Program-made: the position numbers and the translations under genes
Assembly (NCBI GenBank): GCA_035607285.1
Contig: DATNBZ010000069.1
Span: forward strand, 10,182 to 74,181
DNA from: Blastocatellia bacterium
Lineage (GTDB): Bacteria; Acidobacteriota; Blastocatellia; UBA7656
Length of the DNA stretch: 64,000 bases
Direction of reading: 5' to 3'
Shown here: positions 7,305-38,723 of the stretch, piece after piece
Position numbering within the stretch: the stretch's first letter is position 1
Layout of the letters: each line of letters begins with the position of its first letter
Notes under the pieces: generated by a model
Told to the model about the DNA's origin: nothing
Database searches by the model: none
Seen by the model: the letters and a program-made list of their open reading frames with translations, nothing else

Positions 7305-10300
7305 TTATCTGAAGCCGCCAATCAAGACCACATCGCTGGCGATGCTTCCGCGCGCCACAGCCAGTTGTTTGCCGTCACGCGACCAGGCGTGACTAAATAT
7401 TTGATCGGTCCTGAAGTTGGTCAACTGCTTCGGCGCGCCGCCGTCGATCGGATATGACCATATATTAGAAATGCTGTCGCGCAAGTCCGTGTATGTCAGC
7501 GCACGCCCGTCAGGCATCCAGTGAACCACTTGTTCAAGAGGCTGCGGCAGGTCAAAAACCTTTGTACGCTGCCCGCCTTCAACCGTTATAAGGGCGAATC
7601 TCTGACGCTTTGGCGTTGCCTGCTCATCCACGAATCTAAAGACAATCTGTTTTCCATCCGGAGATGGGGCGGGTCTGGCCGAAGAGTAGTCCGTGAGCCG
7701 AATTGGATTGCCGCCATCGATAGAGACCTTCCACAACTGGCTTACGCCCGTTTCGGTGCCTGAGTAAACCACCCATTGACCATCGGGGGTTATCTCCGCG
7801 TTCTGAGCGCTGGCTACGCCGGTCAATTGTTTCGGATTGCTGCCGTCCAGCTCCATTCTCCAAATACAGGAATTGCCTGTGCGATTCGAAGAAAAAACGA
7901 TATAGCGTCCGTCAGGGGAAACCGTTGGTCCAAGGCTCGCACGCTCATCAGCAGTCAATTGTTTCTGGCCTGTCCCATCCTTATTCACGATCCATATGTT
8001 CACGACGCTTCGCGTTCTGCTCGTGTAGATAATTCTGCCGTCAGGGGTCCAACATAAGCCGGACAAACCATCTGAGTTGTTCGATGTAATCTGGGTGGCG
8101 CGGCTTGCATCACCTGCGGGCGCTATCCATATGTTTGAGTTTTGCTGGGTCTGCACTGTGCCCAAAGCATTGGAGTCTGCGGTCAGGCTGATGCCGCCAT
8201 AATCATTCGTGTCATTTGTGATCCTTCGTACCTGGCCGCCGGGATAGGAAACATGCCAGATTTGCTGTGACGGATACGACTCTTTGTCGGAAGCGGCGAC
8301 GATCAAGCCGCTTCCATCCGAAAGCCATGCCAACTGACCGGCCGAACGCCACTGCTGATGGGTGATCTGCTGTTCGGTGTGATCTTTAATCCGGACCGTC
8401 ATCACATTCCAGTGGCTGCCGGAGGCGTCGCCGATTCTTAACGCATAGGCAATCCTCTCCCCATCGGGCGACCAGGATGGGCCCCAGGCTTTCTTTGATG
8501 TGGAATAGATGTCACGCTGGCTATGCGTAACCAGAGCTTGCTCTCCTGTGCCATCAACGTTCGAGGTCGCTACGACTCCTTCGTCGCGCTGCGGATAACC
8601 GCGCATGTAGACTAGTTGTTGGCCGTCGGGAGAAACACTGATGGCTCCATCCACATCCCTGGCCAGCATTTTTACCGAGCCGCCAAGGACCGGCACTCGA
8701 TACATCGCATTCTCGACCGATTCCCACCTTAGAAAGTAAATGTAATTCCCATCCGGAGAGAAGATCAGCGAGTTGTAGTCAACATGATCGGCGGGAACAA
8801 TCTCTGTATCGCTGCCCGTCGCAATATGCCTCAGCCAGAGGCTCTGCTGCCCTTTCCCTCCCAACGCGTGCGCCACATATTTCCCGTCTGGTGAGATCGC
8901 CGCACAACTCGCCTTTCCGGTTGTAGTAAGCCTGGTCAGTTTCATGCTGGCGAAGGACTCGGGCGATTGCGGTGCGATTTGTCGCTGGCTGAATAGCCTT
9001 GCTATTCCCATCCCAACTCCGGTAATCAAAATCGCCACGCCAATGAAAACCAGCGCCGCGCCTTTCTTGTGCCGCTTTATCTCGCTGAGGATGACCTCAG
9101 CGCTCGACGTCGTGAGCGCACCACCGTCTCCCGTCTTCTTCGGTGTTTGGCCGTCAGTATCGATGACCGCTTGCGTTCGAGTAGTCGTCCTGGAATCGTC
9201 GATATCCGGCGCTATGACTTGCGCACGCGCGGCTTGAAACTCGAGCTCCTGTTTTAGCCGCCGGAGATCAACCATCATGTCTCTTGCCGTCTGATAGCGG
9301 TCATCCCTGTCTTTCGTCAGCGCTTTTGTGACGATCCATTGCAGAGCCTCGGGAACATCATTCGAATAGCGCGCCAGCGGCGGCGGCTCCTTCGAAATTA
9401 TCAGGGCAATCAATTCGCCGGCAGTCTTGCCTTCAAACGGCGGGCGCGCCGCGATCATTTCGTAGAGTACCATTCCAAGACTGAAGAGATCGGTCCGCGA
9501 GTCGAGCGGCAACCCGCGGGCTTGCTCGGGCGACATATAATTCACTGTTCCCAGAACCGTACCCGGATCGGTATCGACCCGCGCGATGGTGGCCGCTTGA
9601 GTGTTGTCCGCGGCGCCGTGGCTCTCCGAAAGTTTCGCGAGCCCGAAGTCCAGGACCTTAACGAAACCATCGCGTCGCACCATTATGTTCTCCGGCTTTA
9701 TGTCGCGATGAATTATCCCGGCCTGATGCGCGGCCTCGAGCGCATTCGCCACCTGGATCGTTATCTCGAGAGACTCTTTCACGCTGAGGGTCGCGCTTGA
9801 TAGCCGCCGGCGAATTGTTTCCCCATCGATGTACTCCGTCGCCAGGAAACGGATTGAGTCTGCTTGTCCAATCTCGAAGATCGTGATGATGTTTGGATGA
9901 TTCAAGGCTGACGCGGCGCGCGCCTCTTGTTGAAATCTCCGAAGCCGCTGTTCATCCGCGGTGAAGTAATCCGGCAGGAGTTTCAGCGCCACGTTCCGGC
10001 CGAGACGGCGGTCCTGCGCGAGATAAACGTCACCCATCCCGCCCGCCCCGAGCAGTGCGGTGATCCTGTAAGGCCCAAGCTCTCTTCCGATCAGAATTCC
10101 ACCGTGAGCAGTTGCCAGGAGTTCAGGAGCCTGTGCGAAAACGGGAGACTCGATAAAGCTTCCGGCCTTGTCAGAAGAATCGATCAAGGCCTCTACTTCG
10201 CGGCGCAACGAATGATCTCCCTCGCATGCCTCATCGAGAAAAGCCTCGCGCTCCCGCGGGTCGCGTTCGATCGCGGCTTGAAACACCTTGTCGATTTGCT

Positions 10301-30736: not shown

Positions 30737-31360
30737 ATGTCAATCAGCATTCCTCAGACTCTGAATGTCACGGGACCTCCTGCCGGGAAGCCCGATGATT
30801 TCATCTGGCGCTTGAGCGTCGGGCAGTACCATGAAATGATCCGCGCCGGTATTCTCACAGCGGATGATCCGGTGGAACTGCTCGCAGGATGGCTCGTCTA
30901 CAAGATGCCCAAGAACCCGCCACACCGCATAGCGACGAGACTTGCTCAGCAAGCGCTTGAAGCAGTTGTGCCGGCCGGCTGGTACGTAGATGCTCAAGAG
31001 CCGATCACGCTGAACGACAGTGAGCCGGAGCCGGACGTGATGATCGTACGCGGCGACACCCGAGACTACCGGGATCGTCATCCCGGTCCCGAGGACGTGG
31101 CTCTGATAGTTGAAGTGGCTGACTCCACGCTCGAGCGTGATCGAGGAGTGAAGAGAATGGTCTACGCTCGCGCCGGCGTTCCCGTCTATTGGATCGTCAA
31201 CCTCCTAGAACGCGTGCTTGAAGTCTATTATGATCTTTCGAGTGCGGGCGAAGACGCGGACTATAGACAGCACCAGGACTACAACTTATCGGATTCCGTG
31301 GCAGTTATCATCGACGGACTCGAAGTCGGCCGCGTTGCGGTTCGGGACCTCTTGCCGTGA
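30737..31360 (+). CDS. Uma2-family (DUF820) putative endonuclease.
   Basis: PD-(D/E)xK-like core EPEPDVMIV ... ALIVEVADST with the characteristic Uma2 N-terminal region. Confidence 0.65.
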   Translation: MSISIPQTLNVTGPPAGKPDDFIWRLSVGQYHEMIRAGILTADDPVELLAGWLVYKMPKNPPHRIATRLAQQALEAVVPAGWYVDAQEPITLNDSEPEPDVMIVRGDTRDYRDRHPGPEDVALIVEVADSTLERDRGVKRMVYARAGVPVYWIVNLLERVLEVYYDLSSAGEDADYRQHQDYNLSDSVAVIIDGLEVGRVAVRDLLP

Positions 31361-34569: not shown

Positions 34570-34678
34570 GTGTTGGCGGGTTCAACTCGCCGCGCCGAGA
34601 ATCATGAAGAAAACAGAAGCAGGCGACGATCTACGCGCGAGCGAGAAGTTGGGCAGTTTGCCGGCAAGGAGTAGTGGT

Positions 34679-35125
34679 ATGGGCGTGAACTGGGCGCGTC
34701 TGTCAGCAGAATCGCATTATCAGGTCGCTGTTGAGATAGAGCGAGCACTGCTCCAGGGTGACTTCGAAGAAGCGGAAGCCGGCATCAAGGAGTTGATTGA
34801 CGCGTTGGGCAGATCTGAAAAACGAGCGCTAAAAAGCCAGCTTGTTCGCCTGATGGCTCATGTCATCAAGTGGAAGACACAACGCGAGCGTCGGTCTTAT
34901 GGTTGGGTGGCGACAATCTGCAACACGAAGGAAGAGATTGCCGATATTCAGTCAGAGACACCCAGCTTGACGAGTGACGCTGTCCGGGGCTTATGGGAAG
35001 CGAGCTTCCGGGTTGCGACACGTGAAGCAGAAGGCGAGATGGATCAGAGATCCGAGGTCTCGTCGCTCTCGTGGCAAGAAGTGTTTGAAGATGAGTACGA
35101 AATGGACGGCGCGTCGCAGCAATGA
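34679..35125 (+). CDS. DUF29-domain protein inserted between the large and FAD subunits of the cox-like operon.
   Basis: LGRSEKRALKSQLVRLMAHVIKWKTQRERRSYGWVATI matches the DUF29 core. AAGGAG precedes the Met at 34679; the ORF-track start at 34604 is also possible. Confidence 0.55.
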   Translation: MGVNWARLSAESHYQVAVEIERALLQGDFEEAEAGIKELIDALGRSEKRALKSQLVRLMAHVIKWKTQRERRSYGWVATICNTKEEIADIQSETPSLTSDAVRGLWEASFRVATREAEGEMDQRSEVSSLSWQEVFEDEYEMDGASQQ

Positions 35126-36144: not shown

Positions 36145-36687
36145 ATGAAAATCGAAGGCACTCACGAGATTCATTCCAGCGCCGCACGCGTCTACCAGTG
36201 TCTAATCGACCCTGCGGTGCTGCAGCGATGCATACCGGGTTGCGAGAGGCTCGAGAAGACCGGGGAGAATGCGTACTCCACAACGCTCCGCGCCGGCGTC
36301 GGCTCGATAAAAGGGCTTTTCACCGGAAATGTGCGGCTTGAAGATCTCAGGCCTCCACATCACTTTAGGATGGTAGTCGATGGAAAAGGTCAGCCGGGTT
36401 TCTTGAAAGGCGCCGGTGATCTGGATCTCGCGGGGCAGAACGACGTAACCGTGATCACTTACAGCGGGGACGTTCAGGTGGGCGGTACAGTAGCAAGCGT
36501 GGGCCAGCGAATGCTCCAGGGCGCGGCGAAGATGATGGCCGCCCAGTTCTTCACTGCGATTGAAGCCGAGGCGAAGACCGAAGCACATGAGGATCCCCCA
36601 AAGCATGACTTTTTTCGAACAGCCCTGAGATGGTTCTCGGGGTGGCTCCGCAGGATGTTTCGAAGTACTCGGCAATCGACGAAGTGA
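36145..36687 (+). CDS. CoxG-like SRPBCC-family protein.
   Basis: 180 aa with an N-terminus typical of carbon monoxide dehydrogenase subunit G (MKIEGTHEI...). Confidence 0.7.
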   Translation: MKIEGTHEIHSSAARVYQCLIDPAVLQRCIPGCERLEKTGENAYSTTLRAGVGSIKGLFTGNVRLEDLRPPHHFRMVVDGKGQPGFLKGAGDLDLAGQNDVTVITYSGDVQVGGTVASVGQRMLQGAAKMMAAQFFTAIEAEAKTEAHEDPPKHDFFRTALRWFSGWLRRMFRSTRQSTK

Positions 36688-36772
36688 ATGGTTTAGATCA
36701 GTCGTTCACAGACCCGCCAGAGAGATTGGCGTTACGCAAACTACATTCGTTTGAAGGAGAGATCTCCTAACA

Positions 36773-37900
36773 ATGGGCGATCAAAGGCACCTCCAGATGA
36801 TCCAAAGTAGCGTCGACGAGTGGAATCAATGGCGAAAGGACGCCCCCTTAGTACGCCCCGACCTCAGTGGTGTAAATCTCAAAGACGCTGATCTAAGAGG
36901 GATCAATTTACGGTATGCAGACTTAGTTTCTGCGCGCCTTGATGGGGCAGACTTAACTGGGGCAAACTTGATGTATAGTCACTTGACCAACACACATTTT
37001 GAGCGCGCCGAACTCGTGAGATCGATGTTTTTTGGAGCAGTCGGGGGAGAGCCACAGTTCCTCGAGTCTAATCTAAGCTATGCGAAAATGACTGGGGCCC
37101 ATCTTGGTGCGACCAATATGGAGAACGCTTTGCTCGAAGGTGCAGACCTCGGGGATACGGATTTCACTTACTCCCAGTTTGATAAGGCGAATCTCACTTC
37201 CGCAGACCTTCGCGGTACAAATCTCTCCAAAGCAAGTTTGTTAGACGCAAATCTTGATCGGGCATTGCTAAGCGGAACTGTTTTTGGTGACACTTCCCTT
37301 TTGGGTACTAGGAATTTGGAGACCTGTGTGCACTATGACCTGAGCATCATTGATGTGCAGACTCTTGCAAGGTCCGGGAGACTCCCTCTCGGTTTCTTAC
37401 GTGGCTGTGGTCTGCCCGAACACTTTATCGACTATTTACCATCGCTCCTGCGTGAAGCAATTCAGTTCTACTCCTGTTTCATAAGCTACTCAACCAATGA
37501 CCAGCCTTTTGTGGAGCGCCTCTATGCAGATCTTCAAAGCAAAGGCGTACGATGCTGGTTTGCCCCCGAGGACTTAAAGATCGGGGATAAGTTTCGACAG
37601 CGGATCGACGAATCAATTCGGCTTCACGATAAGCTATTGCTGGTTCTTTCTGAGAAGTCTATAGCCAGCCCGTGGGTGGAGGATGAGGTGGAAGCCGCAC
37701 TGGAGAGAGAGCGTCGCGAGCGAAAATCGGTTCTATTCCCTATCAGCATCGATGAATCAGTATCGAAGAGTGAGATAGCCTGGGCGGCATCGCTCCGTAG
37801 GGCGCGACATATCGGTGATTTTAAGGATTGGAAAAGTCATGACGCGTACCAAAAGGCGTTTGAGCGTTTGCTACGGGATCTCAAAGCCGAAATCCAGTAA
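36773..37900 (+). CDS. Pentapeptide-repeat protein fused to a C-terminal TIR domain.
   Basis: N-terminal A(D/N)LxG pentapeptide repeats (DLSGVNLKDADLRGINLRYADLVSARLDGADLTGANL...). C-terminal FISYSTNDQPFVERLYADLQSKGVRCWFAPEDLKIGDKFRQRIDESIRLHDKLLLVLSEKSIASPWVEDEVEAALE is a TIR pattern. GC is markedly lower than the flanks. Confidence 0.75.
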   Translation: MGDQRHLQMIQSSVDEWNQWRKDAPLVRPDLSGVNLKDADLRGINLRYADLVSARLDGADLTGANLMYSHLTNTHFERAELVRSMFFGAVGGEPQFLESNLSYAKMTGAHLGATNMENALLEGADLGDTDFTYSQFDKANLTSADLRGTNLSKASLLDANLDRALLSGTVFGDTSLLGTRNLETCVHYDLSIIDVQTLARSGRLPLGFLRGCGLPEHFIDYLPSLLREAIQFYSCFISYSTNDQPFVERLYADLQSKGVRCWFAPEDLKIGDKFRQRIDESIRLHDKLLLVLSEKSIASPWVEDEVEAALERERRERKSVLFPISIDESVSKSEIAWAASLRRARHIGDFKDWKSHDAYQKAFERLLRDLKAEIQ

Positions 37901-37979
37901 GCAGGTTGCGATCCTAACCAGATACTTGGATCGCCATTGATAGCCCCTTCAAGGTATCGAAGAGAAATCAAGCGCGGAC

Positions 37980-38723
37980 ATGCAGATCACAACGCAGTAC
38001 CTCGACATACACTCCGTTGGAACCGAAATGCGAACGTTCGTAGCCGCGCCGAGTCGCGAGGGCAAGTTTCCCGGAGTTCTTCTCTATTCCGACATTTTTC
38101 AGCTCACCGCTCCGACACTGAGATCGGCGGTGCGACTGGCCGGCTACGGATTCGTAGTTGCAGCGCCTGAGATATATCATCGTCTCGAACCCCCGGGAAC
38201 AGTGATCCCGTTCGACGACGACGGTCGCGACCGCGGTCTCGCGGATGCCGCAAGAACCGCCGTCGCGGAGTTCGATGACGATTGCCGCGCCGGGCTTGAT
38301 TATTTGAAGCAGCATGCCGACGTCGAACACGGAAGCTTGGCGGCTACCGGTTTCTGCATCGGGGGACATCTCGCTTTTCGCGCTGCGTTGCAGCCGGATG
38401 TGCGTTCAACGGTGTGCTTTTACGGGACGGGCATCCACAACGGCAGGCTTGGCAAAGACGAAAACGCCGGCTCGCTCGAGCGCGCTTCTGATATCAGAGG
38501 AGACCTGCTGATGATCTTCGGCTCGCTCGACCCGCACGTGCCTGCGGAAGCTCGCGAAAAGATCCGAAGCGCGCTCGAGGGCGTCGGTACAAAGTTCAAG
38601 ATGAGCGTTTACGACGCCGAGCATGCGTTCATGCGAGATGAAGGACCGCGCTACGACCCGGAAGCTACCGATCGAGCGTGGGATGAGATGATTCGTTTCC
38701 TGCGGCGGTCCGACAAACTTTAG
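37980..38723 (+). CDS. Dienelactone hydrolase-family protein.
   Basis: 247-aa alpha/beta-hydrolase with the DLH pattern (GFCIGG nucleophile elbow). Confidence 0.75.
   Translation: MQITTQYLDIHSVGTEMRTFVAAPSREGKFPGVLLYSDIFQLTAPTLRSAVRLAGYGFVVAAPEIYHRLEPPGTVIPFDDDGRDRGLADAARTAVAEFDDDCRAGLDYLKQHADVEHGSLAATGFCIGGHLAFRAALQPDVRSTVCFYGTGIHNGRLGKDENAGSLERASDIRGDLLMIFGSLDPHVPAEAREKIRSALEGVGTKFKMSVYDAEHAFMRDEGPRYDPEATDRAWDEMIRFLRRSDKL

Follow-up and report, generated by a model that had tools for sequence, protein, structure and literature searches.

TIR domains acting as enzymes that cleave nicotinamide adenine dinucleotide (NAD+), i.e. as NADases, are an immune currency common to bacteria, plants and animals, and how each of them is switched on is a central question; the cellular roles of pentapeptide repeats are mostly unknown. 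The two meet in one gene of the window, by which we mean the whole 64,000-nucleotide stretch of DNA analysed here (positions 10,182 to 74,181 of contig DATNBZ010000069.1, from a Blastocatellia bacterium of the phylum Acidobacteriota). This gene encodes a pentapeptide-repeat domain joined to a TIR domain and stands between a cox operon and a gene of the dienelactone hydrolase (DLH) family, which raises the question of how it came to be there and what its product does. With modest confidence, we favour the interpretation that it is a horizontally acquired, self-contained single-gene conflict module, encoding a stand-alone TIR NADase effector in which the surface of the pentapeptide β-helix would sense infection and drive assembly of the TIR domains. 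Because all the catalytic and interface residues are present, no partner gene is found and the repeat scaffold evolves fast, a sensor-effector made of one protein is the most economical model.

The TIR domain and the pentapeptide-repeat β-helix

The gene and the parts of its product are located as follows (window positions; aa, amino acid residues; pLDDT, predicted local distance difference test score):

36773..37900, plus strand: pentapeptide-repeat–TIR gene, 375 aa plus stop codon (list of open reading frames (ORFs); Pfam)
36753..36759, plus strand: Shine-Dalgarno-like GAAGGAG, 13 nt 5' of the ATG (read directly from the sequence)
36773..36853, plus strand: N-terminal cap, aa 1-27, two helices (alignment; AlphaFold2 helices 4-12 and 14-23)
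36854..37327, plus strand: pentapeptide-repeat β-helix, aa 28-185, ~30 pentads (Pfam PF00805/PF13599/PF13576; AlphaFold2 pLDDT 94-98; Foldseek; pentad register)
37328..37468, plus strand: conserved helical linker or C-cap, aa 186-232 (alignment; AlphaFold2 helices 195-201, 206-211 and 216-225)
37469..37897, plus strand: TIR domain, aa 233-375 (Pfam TIR_2, 9.7e-27; PDB sequence matches; Foldseek)
37574..37597, plus strand: BB-loop L268-KIGDKF-R275 (aligned to LKVGDSLR of AbTir)
37673..37687, plus strand: αC active-site motif W301-V-E-D-E305 (aligned to W-x-x-x-E of AbTir and BtpA)

A preliminary description of the locus had proposed a pentapeptide-repeat domain fused to TIR at exactly this ORF, and both domains are indeed matched by Pfam: Pentapeptide (PF00805, E=7.6e-27), together with PF13599 and PF13576, in the N-terminal half, and TIR_2 (PF13676, E=9.7e-27) at residues 236-367. 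The database protein P0001 is 100% identical to the product, with its start called from Met9; the start used here is supported by the homologs, whose alignment to the protein begins at residue 1. No promoter or terminator signals above shuffled expectation were found around the gene.

A full-length AlphaFold2 model, built on 40 homologs (mean pLDDT 87.2; predicted TM-score (pTM) 0.62), comprises two capping helices, a β-helix, three short helices, a low-confidence hinge around residues 226-233, after the linker helices, and a TIR-like α/β domain at residues 234-374. Since a Foldseek search with this model matched only β-helix pentapeptide proteins (HetL, Np275/276, MfpA, Qnr and AlbG), a separate model of the linker and TIR domain was needed, and residues 186-375 (pLDDT 77.7) were used for the structural comparison of the latter. 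This second model has 111 PDB matches at E<=1e-3, the best 50 of the 111 being all TIR domains. The top match is 7uxu, the AbTir TIR filament with the NAD+ mimic 3AD (E=4e-7, target-normalised TM 0.77), followed by TIR-APAZ of SPARTA, SARM1, BtpA, BtTir, PdTIR and plant TIRs, and the modelled order of secondary-structure elements fits the flavodoxin-like βA-αA-βB-αB-βC-αC-βD-αD-βE-αE succession of the TIR fold. Among solved TIRs, those nearest in sequence are AbTir (1e-10), BtTir and BtpA/TcpB, with PdTIR also matched, at an identity of only ~24-30% over the TIR domain.

The TIR pattern noticed earlier (FISYS...VRCWF...LLLVLSEKSIASPWVEDEVE) is present, and includes the catalytic-Glu motif S299-x-W301-V-x-x-E305. 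Among the 40 homologs, E305, the predicted catalytic Glu, is invariant and aligns with E208 of AbTir (E642 of SARM1), and W301, at least 90% conserved, aligns with W204 of AbTir. In the BB-loop, G271 is invariant and R275 at least 90% conserved, their equivalents in AbTir being G174 and R178; the position of AbTir S176 is taken by K273, and the low pLDDT of this segment is in keeping with a flexible loop. The E208A variant of AbTir is inactive, W204 is required for cyclisation of ADP-ribose (ADPR), roles of G174 and R178 in the BB-loop have been addressed by mutagenesis, and the enzyme is inactive until self-association forms a composite active site across the BB-loop interface (Manik et al., bioRxiv 10.1101/2022.05.07.491051). 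The window protein shares with AbTir, BtTir, BtpA (TcpB) and PdTIR the catalytic Glu, the αC Trp and the BB-loop Gly and Arg, but it has a cap, a pentapeptide β-helix and a conserved three-helix linker in place of their N-terminal coiled-coil. In the AbTir group activity depends on self-association of the TIR domains, and SARM1 and SPARTA are activated in the same manner, by self-association via a BB-loop composite site.

Judged from these alignments, the TIR domain retains all the residues known to be needed for NAD+ cleavage, together with the Trp linked to formation of cyclic ADPR (cADPR). In sequence and in structure alike it has all the features looked for in an active NADase, the activity itself being predicted, and we regard the protein as very likely to be one. 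The features on which the preliminary description had made its reading depend, namely the TIR fold, the catalytic Glu and the BB-loop, are thus all accounted for, the β-helix and the TIR fold in the models and the Glu and the BB-loop Gly and Arg as conserved residues.

The N-terminal part of the protein is a member of the PF00805 superfamily, with tandem A(D/N)LXX pentads (A in 16 and L or F in 25 of about 29) that are modelled as a right-handed quadrilateral β-helix. The same β-helix is found in HetL, Np275/276, MfpA, Qnr and AlbG, none of which carries a TIR domain. The pentad register is broken by an irregular stretch, GAVGGEPQF (aa 88-96, nt 37034-37060), which is modelled at high confidence and is common only to the four nearest homologs, as xxGGEPRF; by analogy with the functional loops of Qnr proteins, it could be a subclade-specific surface feature. 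In the 40-homolog alignment the cap has the consensus MANxEHLxILKQGVxxWNxWR, with W17, W20 and R21 invariant, and the linker, whose residues 186-232 no Pfam family covers, has invariant S201, P205, F208, R210, G211, G213 and P215 (motif FLRGCGLP).

The two halves of the protein evolve differently: in the nearest relatives the TIR domain is 72-76% identical, versus 43-52% for the repeats. Within the repeats the inward A and L are conserved at 57% and 76%, respectively, and the outward-facing positions least of all, at 29-41%. Across homologs the repeat domain varies in length by steps of five residues, from 83 aa at the shortest to 228 aa at the longest. These numbers bear on the suggestion, made in the preliminary description, that the β-helix mimics DNA and might be a decoy. 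In such a scheme the helix would imitate B-DNA and bind the host gyrase or topoisomerase, or a phage DNA-binding protein, and perturbation of this complex would fire the TIR domain. We consider this very unlikely. The modelled β-helix does resemble MfpA, Qnr and AlbG, with weak matches to the Qnr and MfpA families, and the repeat domain is mildly acidic on average, but the family scores are ~25-34 bits versus NCBIfam cut-offs of 240-500, there is no strongly acidic surface of defined length, the net charge is weak and inconsistent (mean -3.5 per 100 aa; range +2.9 to -11.9), and a nearly 3-fold variation in helix length is hard to square with mimicry of a fixed DNA segment.

Acquisition at the coxG–DLH junction

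The elements of the junction are the following:

36667..37979, strand not applicable: inserted segment, ~1.3 kb (DNA alignments to the empty sites in L082 and L083)
36145..36687, plus strand: left flank, coxG (PF06240), its 3' tail altered by the insertion
37980..38723, plus strand: right flank, DLH-family gene (PF01738)

The surroundings are as they had been described, with a CoxS/CoxL/(DUF29)/CoxM/CoxG cluster upstream and the DLH-family gene downstream, followed on its 3' side by a T2SSG-like gene and then rho. Empty sites were sought by fetching metagenome relatives of the DLH gene and mapping the neighbouring proteins of the window onto them; in the closest relatives the neighbouring genes are mostly 80–99% identical. 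In two of these relatives, L082 and L083, coxG is followed directly by the DLH gene, 30-70 bp apart, with no gene between. The neighbours in L082 are 85-99% identical overall (CoxS 98%, CoxL 99%, CoxM 96%, CoxG 93%, Rho 98%), and the same five proteins in L083 are 90-96% identical. About 25 further loci, more distantly related, likewise have the two genes adjacent without an insert. In DNA alignments the left breakpoint falls at 36666/36667, within the last coxG codons, and the right breakpoint immediately before position 37980, where the DLH gene starts; ~1.3 kb has thus taken the place of ~40 bp of the junction, the final few coxG codons among them. The insert bears neither convincing terminal repeats nor a target-site duplication, being flanked by short repeats at chance level only; there is no tRNA in the window, and neither a tRNA nor a recombinase marks the insertion.

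The flanking genes of the window are common to none of the 80 homolog loci examined. Since the site is empty in relatives and no flanks are shared by these loci, the gene was gained in the lineage of the window, and alone. Its composition is in agreement: with a GC content of 0.50 versus a per-ORF window mean of 0.57 (z = -2.9) it is the lowest among 54 ORFs, its codon typicality is the second worst among the window ORFs, and TTA, CTA, AGA, ATA and AGG amount to 6.7 per 100 codons versus a mean of 3.1 (rank 52 of 54). The low GC content, the rare codons and the horizontal acquisition that had been claimed at the outset are all borne out, and the gene is almost certainly a horizontally inserted accessory gene. 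The empty site in close relatives and the GC deviation are marks of such a gene; the association with defence, taken up below, is qualitative only.

Several smaller observations concern the same region. The idea that the coxG–DLH junction is a defence hotspot was rejected, its other occupant in five distant relatives being a non-defence gene. This conserved gene of ~920 aa has a host-like GC content and an N-terminal hydrophobic stretch, is apparently secreted, and looks by eye like a secreted repeat or propeller-type protein; it is found in a more distant clade (L100:2537-5302, L102:3234-5993, L107:3171-5969, L111:3129-5984 and L122:3184-5946). In the window a DUF29 (PF01724) ORF is wedged between coxL and coxM (34604..35125, plus strand). 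The content of this gap varies: DUF29 is present in L083, L107 and L116, and two small ORFs in L082 (3861-4483) and L108 (3769-4450), those of L108 overlapping and looking like a toxin–antitoxin pair. The GC content of the gap is about 0.52 versus 0.56 for the locus, and it seems that small selfish cassettes land in the intergenic gaps of the cox operon. Just upstream of coxS, a singleton Uma2/DUF820 gene (PF05685, restriction-endonuclease-like; 30737..31360, plus strand) is another small accessory-type gene in a housekeeping context.

The family and its genomic surroundings

The fusion proved to be abundant. A word-indexed search gave at least 7,971 of 8,000 candidates at E<=1e-3, of which the best 120 all comprise pentapeptide repeats and TIR, with 43-61% identity over, in nearly all cases, 99% of the query. 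A phmmer search over 1.84 billion representatives of 50%-identity clusters gave at least 3,277 matches at E<=1e-30, the best 150 of the 3,277 being nearly all pentapeptide–TIR proteins of ~300-600 aa. In a set of bacterial and archaeal genomes with one genome per species, at least 497 loci were confirmed; the best 80 of these are the loci on which our counts of neighbours, arrays and GC content rest. The phyla represented are Acidobacteriota (the majority of the best 80), Chloroflexota, Cyanobacteria, Chlorobiota, Proteobacteria, Desulfobacterota, Verrucomicrobiota, Calditrichota and others. The sensor domain had been called unusual before, which does not hold as far as rarity is concerned, and holds in the sense that the repeat domain is unstudied. 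The gene of the window is an ordinary member of a large uncharacterised family, made more useful by its clean empty-site comparison. Some relatives (P0123, P0184, P0231 and P0239) are much longer, which suggests further N-terminal fusions: those of 791-941 aa have the pentapeptide–TIR unit at their C-terminus, and one pentapeptide giant reaches 4,980 aa.

The linker was found solely alongside both pentapeptide repeats and TIR in the 80 loci. A gene on a Skermanella plasmid that appeared to combine linker and TIR with another N-terminus was rejected as an exception: it is really a pentapeptide–TIR gene split by two copies of the insertion sequence IS256. In this locus (L164, Skermanella rosea plasmid pSR-5, NZ_CP086116.1 31077-34833), the two insertions separate the pentapeptide part from the linker and TIR.

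To find partner genes, the flanking ORFs of the 80 loci were clustered and searched within ±8 kb. No neighbour is conserved: the best non-self cluster occurs in 5/80 loci, at a median distance of 3.8 kb, so the candidate of a conserved partner was rejected, and the strand of neighbours is random (the same strand in 40/75 upstream and 46/78 downstream cases). The stand-alone character postulated in the preliminary description therefore stands, with no ThsA-like or other conserved partner anywhere in the sample. Nor are the surroundings invariably housekeeping and host-like, as they would be under the reading which that description had set against its own; the contexts are all different, some of them defence-rich, and the GC content of the gene is below that of its flanks in 55/80 loci (mean difference -0.03; Wilcoxon p = 6e-6).

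The lack of a partner bears on Thoeris-like signalling, in which the TIR domain would make a cADPR-isomer messenger for an effector encoded elsewhere in the genome, with no killing by NAD+ depletion of its own. The closest TIRs, AbTir and BtTir, produce 2'cADPR, the αC Trp W301 is nearly invariant and this Trp correlates with cyclase activity in characterised TIRs, and there are weak matches to ThsB, both in PADLOC and in the ThsB_TIR family (23.2 bits versus a cut-off of 21.2). Thoeris ThsB, however, has only the TIR domain in common with the window protein, at a marginal level, and no ThsA effector (SIR2/Macro-SLOG) adjoins the gene either in the window, where the neighbours are coxG and DLH, or in the 80 homolog loci. 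Moreover, the gene moves as a single-gene insertion of 1.3 kb, and a protein that only signals would be stranded without its effector. We therefore regard this alternative as distinctly unlikely.

In a minority of loci the immediate neighbours include type I and IIG restriction-modification systems, DISARM DrmA/DrmD, BREX BrxL, Drt4, Drt6, IetS and PIN toxins, versus mainly generic matches (σ54 activators, reverse transcriptases of group II introns, IscS-like proteins) in a distal control of 138 ORFs; as the PADLOC comparison of near and distal genes is one of family counts and not of per-protein calls, this contrast is qualitative, not statistical, and suggests a defence association. The closest homolog (61% identity, from an Acidobacteriota metagenome-assembled genome (MAG)) lies directly downstream of a UG13a-type defence-associated reverse transcriptase (L001:6019-7848, PADLOC E=4e-80). 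The pentapeptide–TIR gene of Leptolyngbya sp. Heron Island J has as its neighbour a gene (L047:4142-7048, minus strand) for a Caspase–nSTAND1–pentapeptide protein of 969 aa; the architecture of this protein is a known one of conflict systems, with the same type of repeat as the sensor arm.

Further pentapeptide and/or TIR paralogs, in tandem arrays, are present in 19/80 loci. Arrays of 3-5 pentapeptide–TIR paralogs occur in MAGs of Chloroflexota (L029:4684-9373, L045:6779-11717, L051:6329-10555, L055:1263-4650 and L017:8001-11089), where they are interspersed with TIR–TIR proteins and with proteins that have an unannotated N-terminus of ~100-190 aa before the same TIR.

Among mobile elements the family is scarce. 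No full-length fusion (at least 80% coverage) was found in 50,697 phage genomes or 72,556 plasmids, save the one plasmid copy split by IS256, and only four loci with family members (L165, L166, L167 and L168) were found in the 2.9 million viral contigs of IMG/VR. These four are in genuine temperate-phage or satellite contexts, with tape measure, terminase and primase genes present, and in L167 (1200-7379) the family member has integrase genes on one side and the large terminase on the other, where morons or defence cargo are typically found. Phage pentapeptide proteins (Caulobacter, Listeria) were considered as TIR-less decoys and rejected, as they have generic repeats only, without the WNxWR cap.

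The disrupted plasmid copy might suggest that such genes are decaying passengers without function, just as the virulence-associated BtpA/TcpB among the nearest solved TIRs, and the occurrence of pentapeptide repeats in effectors of type III secretion systems such as PipB2 (score far under the cut-off), might suggest a secreted or interbacterial TIR toxin or a virulence-type Tcp protein. We take all of these to be extremely unlikely. The ORF in the window is intact, encodes every catalytic residue and has a good ribosome-binding site, and purifying selection on the TIR and linker is strong across thousands of members, which argues against a passenger; a toxin is at odds with the lack of any secretion-associated Pfam domain (a signal peptide was not searched for), with the lack of an adjacent immunity gene, and with a host lineage that looks like a free-living environmental bacterium, the syntenic relatives of the locus being all metagenome contigs.

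The distribution and conservation of the family also bear on an endogenous role in regulation or cell fate, i.e. NAD+ signalling or programmed cell death linked to stress or development, in analogy to HetL-type pentapeptide proteins, which regulate heterocyst patterning. The family is concentrated in Acidobacteriota, Chloroflexota, Cyanobacteria and Chlorobiota, its TIR and linker are unusually conserved, its neighbours are mostly housekeeping genes, and HetL is both the second-best NCBIfam match and one of the top structural matches of the β-helix. Nevertheless, the scores for the HetL/Alr5209 equivalogs are under their cut-offs (82.6 versus 125 bits and, far under for HetL, 72.1 versus 260 bits), the closest relatives of this genome do without the gene, which is therefore dispensable, and the patchy distribution, atypical composition, tandem arrays and occasional carriage by prophages fit accessory conflict genes. 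An endogenous role thus appears unlikely.

Proposed mechanism and its significance

In the sensor-effector model that we favour, the TIR domains would be kept apart in the resting state, either monomeric or in tail-to-tail dimers that the linker holds together. On infection a cue, for instance a protein derived from the phage, would bind the fast-evolving outer surface of the β-helix, and the linker, whether it serves as an autoinhibitory latch or as a module for dimerisation or C-capping, would pass on or free the constraint. Ligand binding would then lead to higher-order assembly and to a composite active site at the BB-loop, as in AbTir, SARM1 and SPARTA, and the resulting NADase activity would deplete NAD+ and stop the growth of the infected cell (abortive infection); given W301, a cADPR isomer might be released alongside. 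We consider it probable that the function of the gene is anti-phage; the role of the β-helix as the sensor is more tentative, being possible but somewhat short of probable. Tandem arrays, variation in repeat number, divergent outward-facing positions, low GC content, defence neighbours and prophage or satellite copies are hallmarks of conflict systems, and there is a precedent in bacterial NLR-like (NACHT/STAND) proteins, for which a sensor function of pentapeptide repeats has been put forward.

The proposed logic, in which a sensor controls oligomerisation of a TIR NADase, is that of the sensor-fused TIR effectors: TIR-APAZ of SPARTA, TIR-SAVED and TIR-STING of CBASS, TIR-bearing bacterial NLR/Avs/bNACHT proteins and retron-TIR. 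SPARTA TIRs are among the best structural matches of the window TIR, and the PADLOC TIR models of sensor-fused systems match the TIR part only. Unlike those systems, the window protein has no APAZ, SAVED, STING, STAND NTPase or reverse transcriptase domain (by Pfam) and no partner gene, its repeat domain being joined straight to the TIR without an NTPase switch. The best PADLOC match is PDC-S66 (1.9e-17), a profile of 282 positions of which only 147-250, the TIR part, align, to residues 231-336; its N-terminal half fails to match the pentapeptide region, and the same profile matches 11 of the 150 neighbouring proteins scanned, presumably paralogous TIR proteins. Hailong, a two-gene membrane-channel defence system gated by oligo-dA, includes an ion-channel protein annotated as pentapeptide; this annotation is what it has in common with the window protein, and it has no TIR. 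As the defining features of each named system were looked for and found wanting, the protein is a bona fide TIR protein and member of the pentapeptide superfamily, and not a component of Thoeris, CBASS, SPARTA, retron-TIR, TIR-NLR, Qnr/MfpA, HetL or PDC-S66.

Several points weigh against the sensor-effector model. The defence role is inferred, no full-length PADLOC model matches the protein, and full-text literature searches found no study of a pentapeptide–TIR fusion. Most neighbours of the homologs are ordinary metabolic genes, and the comparison of defence contexts is crude. The orientation of the TIR domain is not fixed by the full-length model, as its pTM indicates. The divergence of the repeats could reflect relaxed constraint rather than diversifying selection, and the TIR domain, at ~70% across phyla, is more conserved than is usual in arms-race genes, which could mean a conserved cellular role.

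A more specific version of the sensor-effector model can be envisaged, in which the β-helix would be a nucleic-acid-mimicking bait, or a hypervariable, antibody-like flat receptor surface, that captures phage DNA-binding or other phage proteins. Stacking of β-helices templated by the ligand would nucleate a TIR NADase filament, making the protein a switch-less, single-chain pattern-recognition receptor. We think this version improbable as it stands; if true, it would represent a sensing principle distinct from those of TIRs controlled by NLR/STAND proteins, Argonautes or cyclic nucleotides, and one widespread in soil and aquatic bacteria.

Another TIR fusion will not surprise specialists; the size of the family, its stand-alone nature and the unexplained part played by the pentapeptide repeats nevertheless make it a worthwhile target for experiments, for which the locus of the window offers a clean, natural 'before and after' insertion pair. 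The family joins TIR directly to a pentapeptide β-helix, with neither an NTPase nor a partner gene, and it sits in phyla that defence screens have covered poorly, namely Acidobacteriota, Chloroflexota, Cyanobacteria and Chlorobiota. If its members are defence proteins, they would be among the more abundant uncatalogued single-gene systems of environmental bacteria, they would give pentapeptide repeats an immune role, and they would provide a minimal model for ligand-induced assembly of TIR domains.

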